Below are positions 1,381 through 62,939 of a stretch of 64,000 nt of DNA, piece after piece. Origin of the DNA: a bacterium. GTDB lineage: Bacteria > UBA8248. Positions within the stretch are counted from its first letter, which is position 1; each line of letters begins with the position of its first letter. The position numbers and the translations under genes are program-made. The notes under the pieces are model-generated. The model worked only from the letters and a program-made list of their open reading frames with translations, had not been told where the DNA came from and made no database searches. The DNA lies in the NCBI GenBank assembly GCA_965221165.1, contig CBDCRP010000003.1:992001-1056000 (forward strand). Direction: 5' to 3'.

Positions 1381-2829
1381 CTAGTCCTCTTTCAGGGAAC
1401 GACTGAAAAAGTCCGTCAGCGGCTTGGCGAGATAACTGATCAACGAGCGTTCTCCGGTCTGGATGTGCACCTCCACCGGCATACCGGGCGTAAGGGCCAG
1501 TTCATGAATCGCATTTCGCGGGTCCTGCTCCTTGTTCAAGGGGTCGACCGAATCGCCCGACTCCTCGGGCGAGGTTCCCGTCAACCAACCTATAAACCCG
1601 CTCAACGAGCCGCTCGAAGCTTCGGATTTTTCCGCCGGCCCGCCTGCTCCGTTCGCATCGGGTCTGCCCATCGCGAGATCGAGTTCGTACCACGACAGGC
1701 CGCTGTTCGGATCGATCACCGCATCCGCCGACACCCGAATCACATGGCCCGGGAACTCCGGCGTCACACGCGCGGGAAAGGAAGAAAACCGAAGCCGCGC
1801 CTCCTGTCCCGGATATACCTGATCCACATGAATCGGATTGAGCCGCGCCATCACCACCAGCCCCGAATCCTTCGGCACGACGTGCAGTATCGGCTCGCCC
1901 GGACGCACGACCTCGCGCGGAGCGACCACCTTCATGCCGAACACCTTTCCCGAAACGGGCGCCCGCACCTCCATGCGACCGAGGCGCTCGCGCACCAGCG
2001 CGAGACGGTCCAGTACCTGGTTCTCTTTGGCCCTTGCGTCGCGGGCCCATTCCTCCGCTTCCTCGATCCGCCGCGCGTCGACCTGTAGTATCTGAATTTC
2101 CAACTCCGAGATGCGGCCCCGGGCACCGGCGATGGAGGCGTCGTTCGTTCCCGCCTGGCCTTCGAGGCTCTTCGCCGCGCGCTCGAGCGCGAGAAGCCTG
2201 TCGAGCGAGGTCAGCCCCTTGTCGAACAAGTCGCGATAGGCATTGAGTTGGCGAAAGATGAGTTCCGTTTGCTCCTCCAGCGAGACGGCATGCGCTTCCA
2301 GCCCCTTGATTTCCTTGCGCGTCTGTCCGATGCGCTCGCGAAGCCGCGCGACCTCTCCGTTGCGCGAGGCCATCCGCGCGAGGAAGAGCCTTTCGTGACC
2401 GTCGAGTATGTCGCGCACCCTCGCGTCGGCCTCCGATAACGCGGCGAGTTCTTTCTCCCAGACTATCGTGTCCGCGCCCTTGAGCTCCGCCTCCAGGCGA
2501 TTGCGCCGGGCCGCCAACTCGGCGTATTGCGACTCGAGAATCGCCTCCTCCGAGCGCGGCAGCGCATCGTCGAAGCGCACCAATACGTCGTTTTTTTTCA
2601 CGGAATCGCCGTCGCGAACCAGAATCTGGCTTACGGTACCGCCGTCGATATGTTCGACTATCTGATTGCGGTTCTCTACCGCCAGCCGGCCCGAGGCGAT
2701 CACGGCCCCCGAGAGCGAGGCGAAAATGCTCCAGCCGAGGAGTCCGCCTCCCATCAGGGTCAGTGTCAGAAACCCCATGTTCAGCGCCTTGCGCGCAGAG
2801 AACCGCCGCTCGTTCGTCTGATTGCTCAT
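1381..2829 (-). CDS. HlyD/PrtE-family type I secretion membrane fusion protein
   Basis: N-terminal TM, GAVIASG, EHIDGGTV..ILVRDGD, coiled coil, RAPVSG, LTPGMPVEVHIQTGERSLISYLAKPL. Overlaps the upstream PrtD-like stop. Confidence 0.92.
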   Translation of the reverse strand: MSNQTNERRFSARKALNMGFLTLTLMGGGLLGWSIFASLSGAVIASGRLAVENRNQIVEHIDGGTVSQILVRDGDSVKKNDVLVRFDDALPRSEEAILESQYAELAARRNRLEAELKGADTIVWEKELAALSEADARVRDILDGHERLFLARMASRNGEVARLRERIGQTRKEIKGLEAHAVSLEEQTELIFRQLNAYRDLFDKGLTSLDRLLALERAAKSLEGQAGTNDASIAGARGRISELEIQILQVDARRIEEAEEWARDARAKENQVLDRLALVRERLGRMEVRAPVSGKVFGMKVVAPREVVRPGEPILHVVPKDSGLVVMARLNPIHVDQVYPGQEARLRFSSFPARVTPEFPGHVIRVSADAVIDPNSGLSWYELDLAMGRPDANGAGGPAEKSEASSGSLSGFIGWLTGTSPEESGDSVDPLNKEQDPRNAIHELALTPGMPVEVHIQTGERSLISYLAKPLTDFFSRSLKED

Positions 2830-4844
2830 GTCGCATCACCCTGATTCATAGGCGTTTCGGAACCTTTCGGCGGCGCGTCGGGCGCTTGCGTTGACTCATT
2901 TTCACCCGCGCCCGAAGGCGGAGCCGAGCCGCTCACGCGCGCGACGGCGCCGGCGATGAGTTCATCACGCCGACGCCTGACTTCAGAAACCTGCCCCTCA
3001 CCCGCAGGCGCGGGCGTTTTTCGCCCATCACGCGCAGGCGGGCGCACGTCCGCCCTCTCTTGCGGCAGGAGGGCCGCCTGTGCCGCCGAAGCCTCTTTAG
3101 GTTTCGGAGGCTGGATCGCTCCCCTCACCCGCGCGATGGCGCCGGCGATTTGCTCATCGCGCCCACGCTCGGCAGGCGCAGGCGGACGTGCGCGAACTCT
3201 TTCCTGTTGCGCGGGCGCGGGGCGCGCTTGCGCTCTTTGACGCGGAGGCGCAGGCGGCGCCGGACGGGCGGGCTGCTGCTGCGCCTGACCGCCGCCTCTC
3301 GCATCGCGGCGCGCAGGCGAGCGCTGCCGGGCAGCCGCCGGCCTGCCCTCCCCGCTCTCCGCCTTCCTCGCGCCGCCCTCCTGTAATTGCCGTACGGGCG
3401 CCGAGCGACCTCCCTCTCCCCCGGTGGCCGGGACGGGACGCCCGTTCTCCATCACGTACACGGTGTCGCACTGGGCGAACGCGCCGTGGCGATGCGCCCC
3501 GGTGCGTTTCGCCGCATCGACGATGTCCTCGTCTTTCGCATCTTCGGAGAAGCGGGAGATGTTCTCCGCCACGGTCCCATCGAACAAAACCACTTCCTGC
3601 GGCAAATACCCGATATATTTTCCCAGCGCCCCGCCGTACTGGTCGAGTTCCGCCCCGTCGAGGCGCACCGAGCCCGCTATCGGCCGCCACACCCCGGCGA
3701 GAGCGCGCGCGAACGTGGACTTGCCCGCGGCGGATCGTCCCGCGATACCCGCCGCCTATCCCGTTTCGAGACGGAAAGACGCGCCGCGAACAGCCGCCAC
3801 CCGCGCCCCGGGCGCTGCGACCATGAGGCCATCCGTCTCCAGAATCGCGCGTGGAGCGGGAAGCGTCGTCCGGGACGTTTCGGGCGGCGTCTCCCCCAAA
3901 AGGGCGGAGAGCGAACGCCACGAGGCCAGCGCGCGCTGAAGCGTCGGCCAATGCCCGACGGCCTGATCGATCGGGGAGAGCGCGCGCCCCAGGAGGATCG
4001 AGCCCGCTATCATCACCCCGGGCGTCATCTCGCCCTGAATCACGAGAAAAGCGCCGAGCCCGAGCATCATCGACTGGAGGAACAGGCGCAGCGTCTTCGA
4101 GAGCACGCTGTAAAAGCCGTTCCTGTCCGAGGCCGCCAGCGTCCTGTCGAGAACGATGTCACGCAAACCGCCCGAACGCGACACCACCGCGTCCTGCATG
4201 CCGAGACCCTGCACGGTCTCACCGCCCGCGCGCATCTGTTCGAGGAAGATGCCCGAACGAGCGCTCGCCTCCCCGACTTCCTGCTGGATATTACCCGTTC
4301 CCGCCTGGTTGAGAAGGGCGATTCCGGCGAGCAGACAGCCCGAGAAAACCGCCAGGAGGCCGAGCATCCAGTGGAATGAAAACAGCACGAACAAGAAGAC
4401 CGGCGTCCACGGCGCGTCAAAAAAGGCGAAAGGACCCGAACCCGAGGCGAAGCGCTGGATCGTTTCCAGATCGCGAAGGCCCGTCGCCGGGCGCGCGCGT
4501 TCGGCAGGCGACGTCGAGCGGGAAAGGATGGCCCTGAGCACGCGCGAGTCGAGCCGCGCCTGAAGCCGCGCGCCGGCGCGGGCGAGAATCCGTCCGCGCG
4601 CGTGATCCAGCACGCCCATTATCAGGAAGAGAAACGCCACGATGACGACCAGCGCCACCAGCGTCGCCACGGAACGCGAGCCCAGCACCCGGTCGTAGAC
4701 CTGCAGCATGAACAGCGGACCCGTCAGCATCAACAGGTTCACCACCACGCTGAAAAAACCGCACGAAACGAAGAGCCAGCGGCTCTCGGAGAGCACCGCC
4801 CGGATCTCCTTGTCCCCACTCCGGTTCTCTGCCCTTGCGACCAT
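2826..4844 (-). pseudogene. PrtD-family type I secretion permease/ATPase pseudogene (in-frame TAG plus internal deletion)
   Basis: LFMLQVYDRVL and FFDAPWTP TMD motifs. ORFs 3756-4844 and 2826-3692 are in the same frame, separated by TAG at 3756-3758 just before Walker A (GRSAAGKST). LSGGQ signature and Walker B are absent. Confidence 0.85.
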
Positions 4845-12987: not shown

Positions 12988-13410
12988 TCAGCGCCTGAAA
13001 CCGGGTTTGTTCTTCACCCAAAGGGCCGCGCCCCGCAGCCTGCGGAACCAGGGATAAAAGGCGCGCACGCGCTTTGGATTCGAGGCGAACCACTTGACGA
13101 GCCCGCCCAACCAGCCGCCTCCGCTCGTCATCGTCCCGAGCGCCGTCATCGCCTCGGCTCCCTTGTGCCGCCGGCCACCGAAGACGAGAACCATCCCCTC
13201 CTCGACCTCGCAGCCTTGCGCGCGCAACCCGGCGACGAGTTCGGGCGCCCGGTTCGCGTCGATGAGCGTTAGAGGCCGACCGGCCTGCGTCTTGAACCTT
13301 GATTTTCGCGCATAAAAACTACAGAACGGGCATTCGCCGTCATAAAGCAGAAATTCGTCCTGCGAGGAAATATCGGCGGGTTCACTGCGCTCGGCCTCTG
13401 GTGAAGTCAT
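12988..13410 (-). CDS. DCC1-like (DUF393) thiol-disulfide oxidoreductase
   Basis: LLYDGECPFC motif; ATG at 13410 after GGAGGAGG. Confidence 0.8.
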   Translation of the reverse strand: MTSPEAERSEPADISSQDEFLLYDGECPFCSFYARKSRFKTQAGRPLTLIDANRAPELVAGLRAQGCEVEEGMVLVFGGRRHKGAEAMTALGTMTSGGGWLGGLVKWFASNPKRVRAFYPWFRRLRGAALWVKNKPGFRR

Positions 13411-13570
13411 GATTGCCTCCTCCGTTTCCACGTCCGTATTCTCCGCGCGGGAGGACATCGAAAGCAAGCGATAGCGCCCGCGCGGGACTATTCATAAGTT
13501 GGAGAGCAGAGTTCTCCGAGGAGGGGGGATTACCGACCGATGAGGCTTCTATTCCTCAGCCTGTTATCCC

Positions 13571-14266
13571 TCAAGTTTTGCGACTACGTGGTGGACGAGG
13601 AAAACCGCTGCTGAGGCCGTCGATATGTTCGAACAATTCCGGAGCGACCGTGCGCCAGAGCGGATCGAGAATGATACGCACGCCCTCTCGTCGCGCGAGT
13701 TTCGCTGCAGGAACGAAGTCGGCGTCGCCCGCGACGAGGATGATCGTATTCGCCTGTCGTTTAAGTGTGATCGACGTGATGTCTACCCCGATCCGCATAT
13801 CCACCGCTTTCTGGCGAAGGCCGAGAGCGAAATCGTCATCTTTAAGTTCGCTGACCGTAAGTTCGCCTTTCAATAGCCGTTTTTGCGGGGTTTCTTTCAG
13901 CACCCAGCCGCGTTCGCGTCGCACCTCGCCAAGCCGCACGGCGGTGTTGGGTGCGCGTCGCAGTTGCTCGAACAGGTCGTGCCTGAATTGCGCTTCATCG
14001 GTTTTTGCGTAGTCGATACTATGATTGCTGACGGGTTTGTGCTCCTTGCCGTCATAAGGGCTGGCGTCGTAATAGAAAACGCGATAGAGCAACGAGTTCA
14101 CATTGGCGGCGCAAGCGATCTTGTTCTCACGCTTCAGATGCGATGCTACCAATTGACGTATCGCCAAATTGACGGCTTTCGCGTCGTGATGTCTAATTTT
14201 CGGGCGGACTGTCGGAAGACGCTTGAGCAGATAGCCGCCGTCGATGAGAATTGCCACTTTCGCCAT
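13571..14266 (-). CDS. NYN-domain (LabA/DUF88, PIN-like) putative ribonuclease
   Basis: AILIDGGY, YRVFYYD, RQKAVDMRIGVDI, LVAGDADFVPAAKLARREG; the acidic catalytic residues are intact. Confidence 0.92.
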   Translation of the reverse strand: MAKVAILIDGGYLLKRLPTVRPKIRHHDAKAVNLAIRQLVASHLKRENKIACAANVNSLLYRVFYYDASPYDGKEHKPVSNHSIDYAKTDEAQFRHDLFEQLRRAPNTAVRLGEVRRERGWVLKETPQKRLLKGELTVSELKDDDFALGLRQKAVDMRIGVDITSITLKRQANTIILVAGDADFVPAAKLARREGVRIILDPLWRTVAPELFEHIDGLSSGFPRPPRSRKT

Positions 14267-14290
14267 AGAAACGCCGCCGGACATAAAGAC

Positions 14291-14361
14291 ATAAAAATGC
14301 CCCCAGGGATCGGCTGCGCTCATGATCGCTAGGAGCACAGCGTACTGCCAAGGGGCGAATC
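14291..14361 (-). ncRNA. Candidate structured leader/small RNA upstream of the NYN gene
   Basis: Outer stem GCCCCUUGG/CCUGGGGGC, internal loop CAGUAC/CGAUC, inner 9-bp stem GCUGUGCUC/GAGCGCAGC, then AUUUUUAU. Confidence 0.65.
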
Positions 14362-14367
14362 AAACTT

Positions 14368-14396
14368 AACATAAGACTTGTAGGCGCAAATGTCAA
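14368..14396 (-). promoter_or_regulatory. Sigma70-type promoter
   Basis: TTGACA (14396-14391), 17-bp spacer, TATGTT (14373-14368). Confidence 0.75.
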
Positions 14397-14454
14397 CTCC
14401 ACGTTTACTCATACATCGGAAGTCAAGCTCCCCCTTCCCCAGCCGGGCTTGCTT

Positions 14455-16221
14455 CTACCACCCTGCGGCGTAGGATTCGCGCCTCGGGTCGGCCCCGCCG
14501 AGGAGGTAGCCCGTCTCGGGGTCTTTCACGATCGCGCAGACGCTGCCCGCAGGCCAGTGGAAATCGGGCCACGAATCGATTCTGTAGCCCAATTCTGAGA
14601 GCGCGCCGCCCACGTCTTTCAGGAGCCGCGCCTCCGCGCGTGCGCTCGCGGGTTCGTAATCGTGGGGCCAGAAGGAGTCGGGGAAATTGTAGGTGGCGGC
14701 GCGGGGAGCTTCGACCGCCATCTGCGGCTGCATGCCGAAGAGCACATGGTTCAGGAAAACTTGCAACATGACCTGGGGCTGGGTGTCGCCCCCCGGCGTG
14801 CCCAGCGTCATGTAGAACGCGCCGTCTTTAAGCGCGAGTGCGGGGTTCGGCGTGAGCCTCGGCCGCTTCCAGGGGGCCAGGCAGCTCGGATGCGCGGGGT
14901 CGAGCCAGCTTTGAGAACCGCGTCCAGAAACGGTGGCGCCCACTCCGGGGACGAAGGGCATCGCGTTCGATGGGTCCGAGGGCGTACAGGAAAAAGCGTT
15001 TCCCGCTGAATCCACCGCCGTGCAGTAGGAAGTGTCGTGCTGGTATTCGGGCGCAGCTTCTTTTGGAACCCGGTGCGCGCCATCGCAACGCCACGGATGC
15101 GCGCCCCCCTGGTGCGCCCAGGGGTCTCCGGGTTCGGGCATATCGGCGAAGGCGGCTCCTGCCTCGACCCGCTTCGCCTGTTGCGCGGCGTATTCGCGCG
15201 AGAGAAGGCCGTCTATGGGCACGTCCACGAACTCCGGATCCCCGATGTAGGCTTCTCTGTCCGCAAACGCGAGATTGAGTGCGGCCATGATGGAGTGGAG
15301 ATACCCGGAGGAATTGTGGGCCAAGGATGCGAGGTCTAAATTGGCGAGAATGTTCATCGCTTCGAGCAGCGTCGGCCCCTGACACCACGGACCGCAGGCG
15401 TAGACCTGATGGCCCATAAATTCCGTTACCACCGGTTCTTCTTCCTGAACGTGGAAATCGGCCATATCACCCAGCGTCAGCAACCCGCCGTTTCGCTGGA
15501 TGAAATCGACCATTAGGCGGGCCGTCTCTCCGGTGTAGACCTCATCGCGCGCCGCGCGCACACCCCCGGCACGCCCCCCCGCCGCTTTTTGCTCCGCGCG
15601 CACCATGCGCCTCATGGTTTCGGCCAGATCGGGAATCCGCACCCGCCCGCCCACGGGGATGAGCTCGCCTTCGGGAAAATAGATGGGCCGCGCGGATTCC
15701 CACCGGGCGTAGGATTCTTCCGCCGCCTTGATGTGGTCGTACATGAAGTTGTGCATGGGAAAGCCGTCTTCGGCCAGGGAGATGGCGTCCTCACTCACTT
15801 CCGCGAAGGTCCTTGTGCCGTAGCGCTCAAGCGCCGTGAGCCAGGCGTCGGCCGCTGCGGGCGTGACGGCGCGCCGGACTCCGGGAGGAATCTCACCATT
15901 GCAGTTTTTCTCGAACCACTCGATGGAAGCCGCCTTGGGCCAGCGGCCCAGCCCGCTGATGGTGAGGACGCGCTCTTCTTTCGCCAGATAGATCATCGTG
16001 GGCGCGACGCCCAGGAACGAAACCATGTCGGTTTGCAGGACGCTCAGGCAAATCCCCGCCGCGACGCCAGCGTCTATCGCGTTCCCGCCTTTTTCCAGGA
16101 TTCTAAGGCCCGCCTGGCTCGCGTAATGATGGCCGGATACGACCATCGCCTCGCGCGCGATGAACTGCGGCCTGTGGGAGATGTATTCTTGGCCATCGGG
16201 TGTGGTGTGGCGAAACGCCAT
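14455..16221 (-). CDS. ggt: Gamma-glutamyltransferase family protein
   Basis: GGNAIDAGVAA, LAFADREAYIGDP, HDTSY (Thr nucleophile), GTPGGDTQPQ, GGADPRRE. Confidence 0.92.
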   Translation of the reverse strand: MAFRHTTPDGQEYISHRPQFIAREAMVVSGHHYASQAGLRILEKGGNAIDAGVAAGICLSVLQTDMVSFLGVAPTMIYLAKEERVLTISGLGRWPKAASIEWFEKNCNGEIPPGVRRAVTPAAADAWLTALERYGTRTFAEVSEDAISLAEDGFPMHNFMYDHIKAAEESYARWESARPIYFPEGELIPVGGRVRIPDLAETMRRMVRAEQKAAGGRAGGVRAARDEVYTGETARLMVDFIQRNGGLLTLGDMADFHVQEEEPVVTEFMGHQVYACGPWCQGPTLLEAMNILANLDLASLAHNSSGYLHSIMAALNLAFADREAYIGDPEFVDVPIDGLLSREYAAQQAKRVEAGAAFADMPEPGDPWAHQGGAHPWRCDGAHRVPKEAAPEYQHDTSYCTAVDSAGNAFSCTPSDPSNAMPFVPGVGATVSGRGSQSWLDPAHPSCLAPWKRPRLTPNPALALKDGAFYMTLGTPGGDTQPQVMLQVFLNHVLFGMQPQMAVEAPRAATYNFPDSFWPHDYEPASARAEARLLKDVGGALSELGYRIDSWPDFHWPAGSVCAIVKDPETGYLLGGADPRRESYAAGW

Positions 16222-62228: not shown

Positions 62229-62939
62229 ATGAATGAAAAAGGGTCCATCCTGATTGTGGAGGACGAGAAGAACATCGCATTGCTCATCGAAAAGTCTTTG
62301 AGCCGAGAAGGTTTCCACACCATCATCGCTCATGACGGGCTGCGGGCTCTCGAACTGGCGAGCGAGTTCGAACCGATTTTCGTCGTGCTCGATCTGATGC
62401 TCCCGAACATAGACGGCTGGGAGGTTTGCAAGCGGCTCAGACGCGAGTCCGATGTCCCCATCCTGATGCTCACGGCGAAGGAAGGAGAAGTGGACAGGCT
62501 CTTCGGCTTCTCGCTGGGCGCCGATGATTACGTCGTAAAACCCTTCAGCCCGAGGGAACTCATCGAGCGCGTCAAGGCCATCCTCAGGCGCATGAAACAC
62601 ACGCTCAGGTACAAGAAGACGGAACTCTCTTTCGGCAATCTGCTCATGGAGCCCGAAAAGCACAAACTCACCCGAAACGGCGAACCCATATCGCTCACCC
62701 CCTCGGAATACGTTCTGCTCCTAACGCTCATGAGCGCGCCCGGGCGTGTTTTCACTCGCCATGAACTGCTCACCAGGCTCTACCGAACGTCGGACGCCGT
62801 GGTCGATCGCGTGGTGGACGTCCACATCGGAAAACTTCGGCAAAAAATCGAGTACGACCCCACCAATCCCCACCTCATCCTCACGATGCGCGGCGTGGGA
62901 TATCGTTTTGCAGACAAGGAAACGCAAGGAGACAATTAG
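62229..62939 (+). CDS. OmpR/PhoB-family response regulator
   Basis: IVEDE, LDLMLP, GADDYVVKPF, VDVHIGKLRQKIE, RGVGYRF. Confidence 0.95.
   Translation: MNEKGSILIVEDEKNIALLIEKSLSREGFHTIIAHDGLRALELASEFEPIFVVLDLMLPNIDGWEVCKRLRRESDVPILMLTAKEGEVDRLFGFSLGADDYVVKPFSPRELIERVKAILRRMKHTLRYKKTELSFGNLLMEPEKHKLTRNGEPISLTPSEYVLLLTLMSAPGRVFTRHELLTRLYRTSDAVVDRVVDVHIGKLRQKIEYDPTNPHLILTMRGVGYRFADKETQGDN

Follow-up and report, generated by a model that had tools for sequence, protein, structure and literature searches.

A conserved structured RNA in front of one clade of NYN nuclease genes and its possible role in a type III-like pair

Type III toxin-antitoxin loci (ToxIN, CptIN and TenpIN) were recognised by Blower et al. 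2012 by a promoter, a tandem-repeat antitoxin RNA, a terminator and a toxin gene, and the antitoxins described in the cited sections of that paper and in abstracts are all repeat arrays that are processed by their toxin (PMC3401426). Here we analyze a locus of similar order in which the nuclease is a NYN protein, located in a 64,000-nt stretch (the window) from a bacterium of the lineage UBA8248 (assembly GCA_965221165.1, contig CBDCRP010000003.1, positions 992,001 to 1,056,000). Between a promoter and the start codon of the NYN gene lies a hairpin that ends in a U tract. Comparison with related loci makes us confident that this hairpin is a real, apparently undescribed structured RNA that is specifically tied to one NYN nuclease clade. 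As to its function, we tentatively favour a type III toxin-antitoxin-like pair, in which terminated RNA in excess restrains the NYN nuclease, as a leading possibility rather than as a probable one.

Coordinates are positions within the window, and all features described are located on the minus strand. In this orientation the end of a gamma-glutamyltranspeptidase (GGT) gene is followed by the promoter, the hairpin, the U tract, the NYN gene and a gene for a DCC1-like thiol-disulfide oxidoreductase. The locus itself consists of the following features:

14391 to 14396, minus strand: -35 hexamer TTGACA, also present in the orthologous loci L010-L012.
14368 to 14373, minus strand: -10 hexamer TATGTT, 17-nt spacer to the -35 hexamer; the pair scores 10/12.
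14348 to 14356, minus strand: 5' arm of the basal stem P1, GCCCCUUGG, partner CCUGGGGGC, from the fold and pair counts.
14342 to 14347, minus strand: 5' strand of the internal loop, CAGUAC, with the core AGUA, from column counts over 81 rows.
14333 to 14341, minus strand: 5' arm of the upper stem P2, GCUGUGCUC, pairing with GAGCGCAGC; double-sided changes in 9/9 pairs.
14322 to 14332, minus strand: apical loop of 11 nt, CUAGCGAUCAU, with conserved G-Y-R-A-U-Y-A-U; insertion site of the extra hairpin P3 in long forms.
14313 to 14321, minus strand: 3' arm of P2, GAGCGCAGC, from fold and covariation.
14308 to 14312, minus strand: 3' strand of the internal loop, CGAUC, with the core GA and a free fourth base, from column counts.
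14299 to 14307, minus strand: 3' arm of P1, CCUGGGGGC, from fold and covariation.
14291 to 14298, minus strand: U-rich tail, AUUUUUAU, which together with P1 resembles the end of an intrinsic terminator.
14280 to 14295, minus strand: 8-nt tandem duplication, two copies of UUUAUGUC, in the spacer, in this genome only.
13571 to 14266, minus strand: NYN (LabA/DUF88-like) gene, 231 amino acids plus stop, with a Pfam NYN match.

As in the type III loci, in the sections of PMC3401426 cited here, a constitutive-type promoter precedes a non-coding RNA, a hairpin terminator and an endoribonuclease-type gene that would be reached by read-through; a protein antitoxin is missing, and plasmid and mobile-element locations as well as partial or decayed loci are found. 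Unlike the arrays of ~35-nt repeats with pseudoknots described there, the RNA here forms a single hairpin, 54-83 nt long, whose internal loop resembles loop E. Its terminator is its own basal stem, and the protein is NYN/PIN-like and not ToxN, CptN or TenpN. Judged from the sequence, promoter placement and terminator agree with the type III definition, whereas the repeat array and the toxin family do not. A first-pass annotation of this DNA had called the layout type III-like, which holds for the order promoter-RNA-terminator-nuclease and fails for the tandem repeats and for a toxin of the ToxN, CptN or TenpN kind. With neither tandem repeats nor a ToxN-like toxin, the locus is not a formal type III member. 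The sequence elements listed in that annotation, including TTGACA-17-TATGTT, the two-stem hairpin and the U tract, were all recovered at their places on the minus strand, and the NYN start, which it had put about 25 nt past the RNA, is an ATG at 14266, 24 nt past the U tract. The 8-nt duplication at 14280-14295 is missing from the three orthologous loci L010-L012, and contigs of the sequencing runs X1 and X5 carry 7 nt fewer at this site.

The NYN domain (PF01936) was detected by Pfam with 40 bits against a gathering threshold of 24.2 (E 6.9e-10) at residues 150-199. D9, D156, D162, D181 and D183 are invariant in a sequence alignment of 21 relatives; these may include the catalytic aspartates proposed earlier, their role in the active site being predicted. 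NCBIfam and PADLOC yielded weak NYN matches only, the sole NYN model of PADLOC-DB 2.0.0 (PDLC01154) matching ~40 residues of the window protein with an E value of 2e-4. A sequence search of solved structures returned nothing relevant to the NYN protein, and a Protein Atlas query with a stored homologue returned solely clusters named 'NYN domain-containing protein'. In the cited part of a PIN-superfamily survey, the LabA/DUF88-type NYN group is given as 'function unknown' (PMC5499597).

Folded alone, the 66-nt piece reached -29.7 kcal/mol (z -2.97), and equally good folds were obtained for 2 of 200 shuffles. The computed structure is exactly the one drawn in the first-pass annotation, a hairpin of 58 nt (14356-14299) in which P1 comprises nine pairs, with an adjacent U.G wobble and a U.U mismatch, and P2 another nine. 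When longer flanks were included, the fold energy was unexceptional (z -0.13 to -0.61), and therefore the case for a real element rests on conservation and not on energy. Within the window's genus, the window and its three orthologues differ in the stems solely by substitutions that preserve pairing (G-C to G-U, U-G to U-A), and their loops are identical. For a broader comparison, 32 short-form upstream elements were aligned (alignment A2) and the structure of the first-pass annotation was imposed on them. Of all cells, 89.9% were paired, and double-sided changes occurred in 11 of 18 pairs, including 8 of the 9 in P2; none of 500 shuffles reached these values, and slid partners gave 32-60%. 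A covariance model built from A2 (R1) was used to fit an alignment of 81 rows, the window and 80 further loci. Here 90.7% of the cells were paired (95.8% in P2) and 15/18 pairs changed on both sides, with 9/9 in P2, again at values matched by 0/500 shuffles, the slid controls reaching 30-62%. G-U cells were far more frequent than A-C cells (97 vs 14), and therefore the fold belongs to the NYN-sense strand. The same counts make a DNA-level operator or a cruciform unlikely.

The unpaired positions are more constant than P2. On the 5' side of the internal loop, 79 of the 81 rows have A, 78 G, 81 U, 81 A and 74 C; on the 3' side, C (76), G (78) and A (81) are followed by a free base (U 36, C 23, A 15, G 7) and by C (74). 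A pseudoknot between the two GAUC words was considered and rejected, as this free column would have to pair with a loop A that is invariant. AGUA opposite GAA or GAC is the consensus of the sarcin-ricin or loop E motif. Like this bulged-G motif of rRNA, the AGUA of the hairpin faces GA(N) between two helices and is nearly invariant, a match at the level of sequence only; unlike in the rRNA motif, the flanking C/C next to P2 is not Watson-Crick. P1 is nearly constant in sequence within the NYN subfamily of the window. About 36 loci represent a long form with the extra hairpin P3 inside the apical loop, which covaries as well (34 sequences), and the length of the hairpin ranges from 54 to 83 nt across relatives. 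Covarying stems and an invariant AGUA/GA loop upstream of homologous NYN genes were what the first-pass annotation expected of a genuine element, and the covariance model brought out both, with AGUA/GA nearly invariant in 81 loci. Likewise, the absence of conserved structure among homologues, which would have spoken against its proposal, was not observed: 81/81 loci carry the RNA.

These data bear directly on another explanation, namely that the hairpin does no more than act as an intrinsic terminator for the GGT gene, whose stop is at 14455 (Pfam 1.5e-101), or is a chance hairpin without a tie to NYN. It begins 99 nt past this stop, a U tract follows it, and with flanks its fold energy is unexceptional. 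However, the promoter is situated between the GGT gene and the hairpin, and promoter and hairpin are kept in all three same-genus NYN orthologues (86-98% identity), including genome G013, in which the upstream gene differs. Across the 80 loci, which come from many phyla, the neighbours change while the RNA stays. As the RNA follows NYN into differing contexts, it is not a terminator of the GGT gene, and we regard this explanation as practically negligible.

Rfam 15 contained no match to the hairpin at E values up to 10 for positions 13000-15000 of the window, nor at E up to 1 for 10 related loci, so that the comparison with Rfam suggested by the first-pass annotation gave no known family. At locus L143, a match to BSnc120 with 26 bits against a cut-off of 114 was taken as chance. 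In the literature we found no paper linking a NYN gene with an upstream structured RNA, a search that did not cover supplementary motif lists, which may hold such a motif; term look-ups in PMC5737381 and in the main text of bioRxiv 10.64898/2026.10.21.760802 also revealed no such link. The earlier statement that no NYN/non-coding RNA pair had been characterised is therefore consistent with both the literature and Rfam 15.

The NYN family is large, with 7434 of 8000 scored candidates at E <= 1e-3. A scan of one genome per prokaryote species gave 346 relatives, of which the best 80 (59-98% identity) were used as the 80 loci mentioned above. Their records include Nitrospinaceae, Latescibacterota, Binatia, Alpha- and Gammaproteobacteria, Chloroflexota/Dehalococcoidia, Acidobacteria, Myxococcota, Rhodothermales, Nitrospirales, Limisphaerales and others. 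According to the record titles, harmless carriers in culture include Rubellimicrobium thermophilum DSM 16684, Albidovulum marisflavi WL0002, Cognatiyoonia sediminum DSM 28715 and Phaeovulum veldkampii DSM 11550. R1 found exactly one match per source in the window and the 80 loci (81/81), on the NYN strand and directly upstream of the gene, with E values from 1.8e-24 to 1.5e-7; a NYN gene of the window's subfamily without the upstream RNA was found at 0/81 loci. The RNA is single-copy in the genome of the window, and eight whole genomes that were checked contained one copy each. A weak model match in the window at 62694-62756 (16.5 bits, E 0.06) and two weak matches in genome G016 were disregarded.

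More distant relatives were encountered on plasmids and in viral sequences. NYN proteins with 38-46% identity are encoded by 163 plasmid records (Campylobacter 134, Xanthomonas 14, Aeromonas 8, Thermus 2, others), 129 of which are predicted to be conjugative, and proteins with 29-65% identity are encoded by 50 IMG/VR contigs, among which several have been assigned to proviruses. Their upstream regions differ in sequence and G+C content and follow the same design, P1, (N)AGUA(N), P2, loop, P2', (C)GA(A)N, P1' and U tract. With filters off, R1 matched the expected site in 22 of 25 of these viral and plasmid sources, and 274/300 cells of the 22 rows were paired (91.3%, own count). P1 covaries freely among them (closing pair, for example, GC 9, AT 8, CG 1, TA 1), AGUA is retained in most, and the 3' side is mostly the canonical GAA. 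A broader covariance model, R2, matched the expected site in 39/50 viral loci and in two of three plasmid loci, those of Xanthomonas and Thermus, at which NYN identity is no more than 35-46%. The common core is the AGUA/GA internal loop. The Thermus plasmid leader has the same P1 and U tract, AGUA being absent (16-20 bits). The Campylobacter plasmid leader resembles the motif by eye (UUGGCAGUAAC...), a tentative assignment, as it reaches 8.4 bits, has no R2 match and shows a different minimum-energy fold.

A sister subfamily of NYN proteins (196 amino acids, 36-43% identical), with four members in the window's genus (L013, L014, L015, L024), is preceded by an RNA of its own. Its leader consists of a promoter, a conserved (U)AUCCGCUAC-GCYCG-UAGG-CGRGC-AUGUAU with a covarying hairpin, a separate strong terminator of variable sequence and the start codon; no Rfam match above threshold was obtained for it. 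The core of this RNA was present in 62 of 66 metagenome loci with enough upstream sequence (L133-L202), and two of the four misses are spurious protein matches. One sister member, L186, is without the usual leader and has a different hairpin with GGGGGCGAUCAUCC, recalling the GCGAUCAU loop of the window's motif. Given that these sister genes combine a different RNA with an equivalent layout, the order promoter, conserved small RNA, terminator and NYN is the rule for the clade, the RNAs being specific to the subfamily. Subfamily-specific RNAs would be the pattern that RNA-protein co-evolution gives. Lineage-specific structured RNAs that stand beside a PIN-superfamily nuclease and differ by clade are likewise reported for PhoH2 (PIN-PhoH) in the main text of bioRxiv 10.64898/2026.10.21.760802; unlike here, they belong to another protein family and are other RNAs, and NYN, DUF88 and LabA do not appear in that main text.

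Highly conserved unpaired nucleotides framed by covarying stems, in a 5' leader position and with a terminator-like stem, might also be expected of a riboswitch, that is, a leader in which the loop-E hairpin binds a small molecule and tunes termination before NYN. The RNA is, however, a single nearly continuous hairpin without a junction or pocket-like architecture, and a P1 conserved in sequence within a subfamily would be unusual for the closing stem of an aptamer. One fold only was seen, with no separate expression platform, although no systematic search for alternative pairings was made. Moreover, the gene under control encodes a nuclease carried by mobile elements and has no metabolic or transport function, and the quite different RNA of the sister subfamily fits protein-RNA co-evolution better than a shared ligand. 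We therefore consider a riboswitch very improbable.

The genomic surroundings of the cassettes vary. An all-vs-all comparison of flanking open reading frames (ORFs) and a Pfam scan of 74 downstream ORFs revealed no universal neighbouring protein family and no candidate protein antitoxin; at the level of families, this bears out the earlier remark that no protein antitoxin is nearby. In 21 of the 80 loci the cassette is located directly behind a gene of ~950 amino acids with ResIII and restriction-endonuclease domains (type III res), in records of Alphaproteobacteria, Dehalococcoidia, Nitrospirales and Binatia, and N6_N4_Mtase domains occur in 12 of 74 downstream neighbours. At locus L033, the downstream gene is a PADLOC MTase_III (type III methyltransferase, 1325 bits) whose start overlaps the NYN stop. 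The same overlap is seen on the Thermus plasmid, which carries helicase, hairpin, NYN and N6 methylase in this order; on the Campylobacter plasmid, a SNF2 gene is followed by NYN. Nesting in a restriction-modification system, found at the 21 res-linked loci, does not apply to the window with its GGT and DCC1-like neighbours, and ~59/80 cassettes lie among unrelated housekeeping genes. Defence genes nested inside DNA-modification systems, including the NYN protein HEC-09, have been described by Payne et al. 2024 (bioRxiv 10.1101/2024.01.29.577857). As with HEC-09 in the part of that preprint cited here, the NYN gene can stand between helicase or restriction and methylase genes in the same orientation. 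Unlike the window's NYN, HEC-09 has an extra N-terminal domain, and the cited part of its paper mentions no RNA.

This arrangement might indicate that the RNA is a substrate or working partner of NYN, which would process the hairpin or carry it as a ribonucleoprotein, either as a specificity or guide element or as a post-transcriptional controller of the restriction-modification genes that are its neighbours at some loci. In addition to the res-linked cassettes and the plasmid relatives between helicase and methylase genes, such a role could account for the extreme cross-phylum conservation of P1 and the loops and for stand-alone RNA copies that retain their promoter (see below). Yet the majority of cassettes, among housekeeping genes, have no such neighbours, and a variable 'guide' segment is missing, since variation is confined to P2, whose covariation is that of a simple spacer helix. 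Altogether, a ribonucleoprotein of this kind appears decidedly unlikely.

Several observations concern the mobility of the cassette. In L070, from a metagenome-assembled genome of the Gammaproteobacteria, it is flanked on both sides by IS3 frameshift pseudoknots (Rfam ALIL) at 1777-1893 (+) and 4617-4733 (-), and in L203, a Xanthomonas citri plasmid, one such pseudoknot lies beside it at 3941-4057, the ALIL scores in both loci being 97-115 bits. The presence of IS3 elements beside cassettes suggests a possible transposon-borne spread. The Xanthomonas plasmid also contains a C4 antisense RNA (RF01695, 66.9 bits, above gathering) at 1661-1753 (-), ~750 nt upstream of the cassette.

The distribution within the window's genus is patchy, as R1 matches 7 of 23 genomes (G000 included), four of which have an intact RNA-NYN pair. 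In genome G018 (L109:1175-1242), the GGT...DCC1 synteny, the promoter and the RNA are intact, and ~90 nt replace NYN. In G016 (L108:1500-1572), the promoter, an RNA identical to that of the window, the U tract and 12 nt of spacer are found in another context, the next gene being convergent. G001 (L112:1495-1690) has a mutated RNA (AGUA to GGGA) and a NYN remnant of 30 residues. The RNA can thus persist on its own, with promoter and terminator, after the nuclease gene has been lost. RNA without NYN, and in this sample never the reverse, is what would be expected if NYN were harmful without the RNA, with the reservation that the numbers are small. In another family, R1 matched in 3 of 121 genomes, namely the centre genome (intact), one decayed cassette and one false match. 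Two model matches were rejected, G058/L113 as a plain terminator and G072/L121 as lying inside coding-like sequence. In a DNA contig of 1593 nt from run X4 (record 12, aligned to 13416-14514), the GGT end is separated from the RNA motif (14291-14364) by an insertion of 1262 nt of other sequence; behind the motif, 149 nt of other sequence stand instead of NYN, followed by 13462-13416. REP-like GC-rich palindromes (GGGACAGGTCGCGACCTGTCCCTACA and variants) recur between genes in this genus, for example ~200 nt upstream of the NYN start in L011 and at L108:1405-1435, and one is located at L109:1085-1125, where NYN is missing in G018.

Signals for transcription were evaluated by a strict promoter rule (at least 9 of the 12 bases matching, no fewer than 4 in either hexamer, spacer of 16-18 nt). 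Promoter-like hexamers that satisfy it precede P1 in 42 of 81 loci, compared to 2 of 81 control windows inside the ORF, and many of the loci failing the rule show promoter-like hexamers with other spacing. In all 42 loci the 3' end of the -10 hexamer lies 10-13 nt ahead of P1 (11 nt in the window), and the predicted transcription start is at ~14360-14362, a few nucleotides ahead of P1. At least 5 T within 8 nt past P1 were counted in 69/81 loci; between restriction-modification loci and the others, no clear difference in these T counts was noted by eye. The gap between P1 and the NYN start is short (median 24 nt, range 5-51 nt over the 81 loci) and leaves no space for a second promoter, and therefore NYN would be made only from transcripts that cross the hairpin. 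An RNA-library contig of 318 nt (depth 3) from a close relative covers 14349-14025, beginning 7 nt inside P1 and crossing the U tract to reach NYN. This extent fits transcription from about the predicted start with read-through, a weak hint, as the contig stems from one run only, contigs do not resolve ends, strand or abundance, and carry-over of DNA is possible. Two alternative signals were discarded. A promoter TTGGCA-18-GATCAT inside the hairpin is incompatible with the long forms, which insert 9-25 nt between the hexamers. A GTG start at 14338, by which NYN would extend through the hairpin (so called in the database protein P0058), was rejected because gaps of 5-51 nt and the 8-nt indel between the window and L010 break the frame and because the stems covary as RNA.

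Taken together, the favoured type III-like pair would operate as follows. A sigma-70-type promoter would fire a few nucleotides ahead of the hairpin, and the basal stem with the U tract would act as an intrinsic terminator at which most transcripts stop, giving a discrete RNA of ~65-70 nt (up to ~95 nt in relatives). A minority of read-through transcripts would carry the NYN ORF, which starts ~24 nt later. The NYN protein would recognise the RNA via the AGUA/GA internal loop and the GYRAUYAU loop, and RNA in excess would hold the nuclease inactive. Start site, termination, RNA-protein binding, inhibition and toxicity are steps that we infer from the locus and its relatives. In favour of such a pair are the layout, which agrees with three of the locus criteria in PMC3401426, the 81/81 linkage, the covariation, the asymmetry of decay, the accessory and mobile character of the cassette, the lack of a universal protein antitoxin, the RNA of the sister subfamily and, as a weak hint of expression, the RNA-library contig.

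Other findings weigh against it, in addition to the limits of the RNA contig. There is no tandem repeat array: Tandem Repeats Finder, run on 13400-14700 with a minimum score of 30, reported only the 8-nt unit present twice. The nuclease is recognised as Pfam NYN only and stands outside the ToxN, CptN and TenpN families. The RNA-only loci may be recent deletions, as the motif differs at 1-2 of 58 positions and the flanks are 86-91% identical, too few sites for a statement on selection. HEC-09, a distant NYN protein, gave no phage protection in one published test, in the part of the preprint cited (bioRxiv 10.1101/2024.01.29.577857). The overlap of the NYN stop with the methylase start in L033 and on the Thermus plasmid, by which the two genes would be translationally coupled, resembles an operon with a leader more than a toxin gene. 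Finally, provirus L218 carries a second copy of the motif at 2438-2501. It is located ~250 nt beyond NYN, and a tyrosine-integrase ORF of 368 amino acids (2519-3625) starts 17 nt after it. This copy (31 bits with R1, 49 bits with R2) is the sole one found before a non-NYN gene, and it fits cis-regulation.

The last two observations favour the alternative given in the first-pass annotation, an autoregulatory attenuator. In such a model the hairpin, as operator or attenuator, would act in cis from the 5' end of an mRNA that encodes NYN and any operon genes behind it. NYN would bind or cut it and thereby limit its own synthesis; the RNA may mimic the real target of the enzyme, and no toxin-antitoxin behaviour would be involved. 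RNase E, RNase III and PNPase autoregulate through their own leaders, and Regnase-1, whose catalytic domain is NYN/PIN-like, cuts a stem-loop in its own mRNA. As in rne, rnc, pnp and Regnase-1, a conserved hairpin, presumably recognised by the product, is part of the nuclease's own mRNA. Unlike in these examples, it doubles as a terminator right behind the promoter, it exists as a stand-alone promoter-RNA unit in two genomes, and the module is accessory and mobile rather than housekeeping. The constant position of the RNA between promoter and start codon fits a leader, and so does locus L064, in which the start codon follows 5 nt past P1, so that the G-rich 3' arm would double as ribosome-binding site; the strict co-occurrence in 81/81 loci is equally expected. 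On the other hand, an antiterminator pairing was not seen, in the course of an analysis that made no systematic search for alternative pairings, and the whole conserved structure is itself the very stable terminator. A conserved antiterminator is also unlikely in view of the sister subfamily, whose RNA has a fixed conserved module next to a terminator free to vary in sequence. The RNA of G016 keeps its promoter and faces a convergent gene, leading nothing. As each of the eight genomes checked has a single copy, there is no regulon in most hosts. We regard autoregulation as a serious possibility, only a little less likely than the type III-like pair.

A more far-reaching version of the type III-like pair would make this locus the first representative of a novel, type III-like class of abortive-infection systems with an RNA antitoxin. 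Through its invariant AGUA/GA loop, the RNA would mimic a loop-E site, be it the sarcin-ricin loop in 23S rRNA or a different one, and loss of the RNA, for example upon transcription shut-off by a phage, would free NYN to cut that rRNA site. The sister subfamily would employ different decoys, and cassettes between res and mod genes would have been recruited as a second line of defence. We consider this version unlikely.

Under either the type III-like or the autoregulatory reading, comparative evidence very strongly supports the hairpin as a candidate for a new RNA family, and a covarying RNA partner may provide the first concrete handle on what one large LabA/DUF88 NYN clade recognises, namely a loop-E-type hairpin. 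If the RNA restrains the nuclease, type III systems would extend past repeat arrays and ToxN-like toxins, and their reach, so far dominated by Firmicutes and Fusobacteria in the published families, would come to include many further phyla as well as conjugative plasmids and proviruses. As an autoregulatory operator, the RNA would instead constitute a new and widespread protein-binding leader, controlling type III methylase genes in about a fifth of the loci.

Downstream of the cassette, the plus strand of the spacer that separates NYN from the DCC1-like gene (13435-13531) gave a sub-threshold Rfam match to the Xanthomonas small RNA sX7 (20.5 bits against a cut-off of 55, E 0.43), which is probably due to chance. 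The same spacer contains two copies of UCCCGCGCGG.

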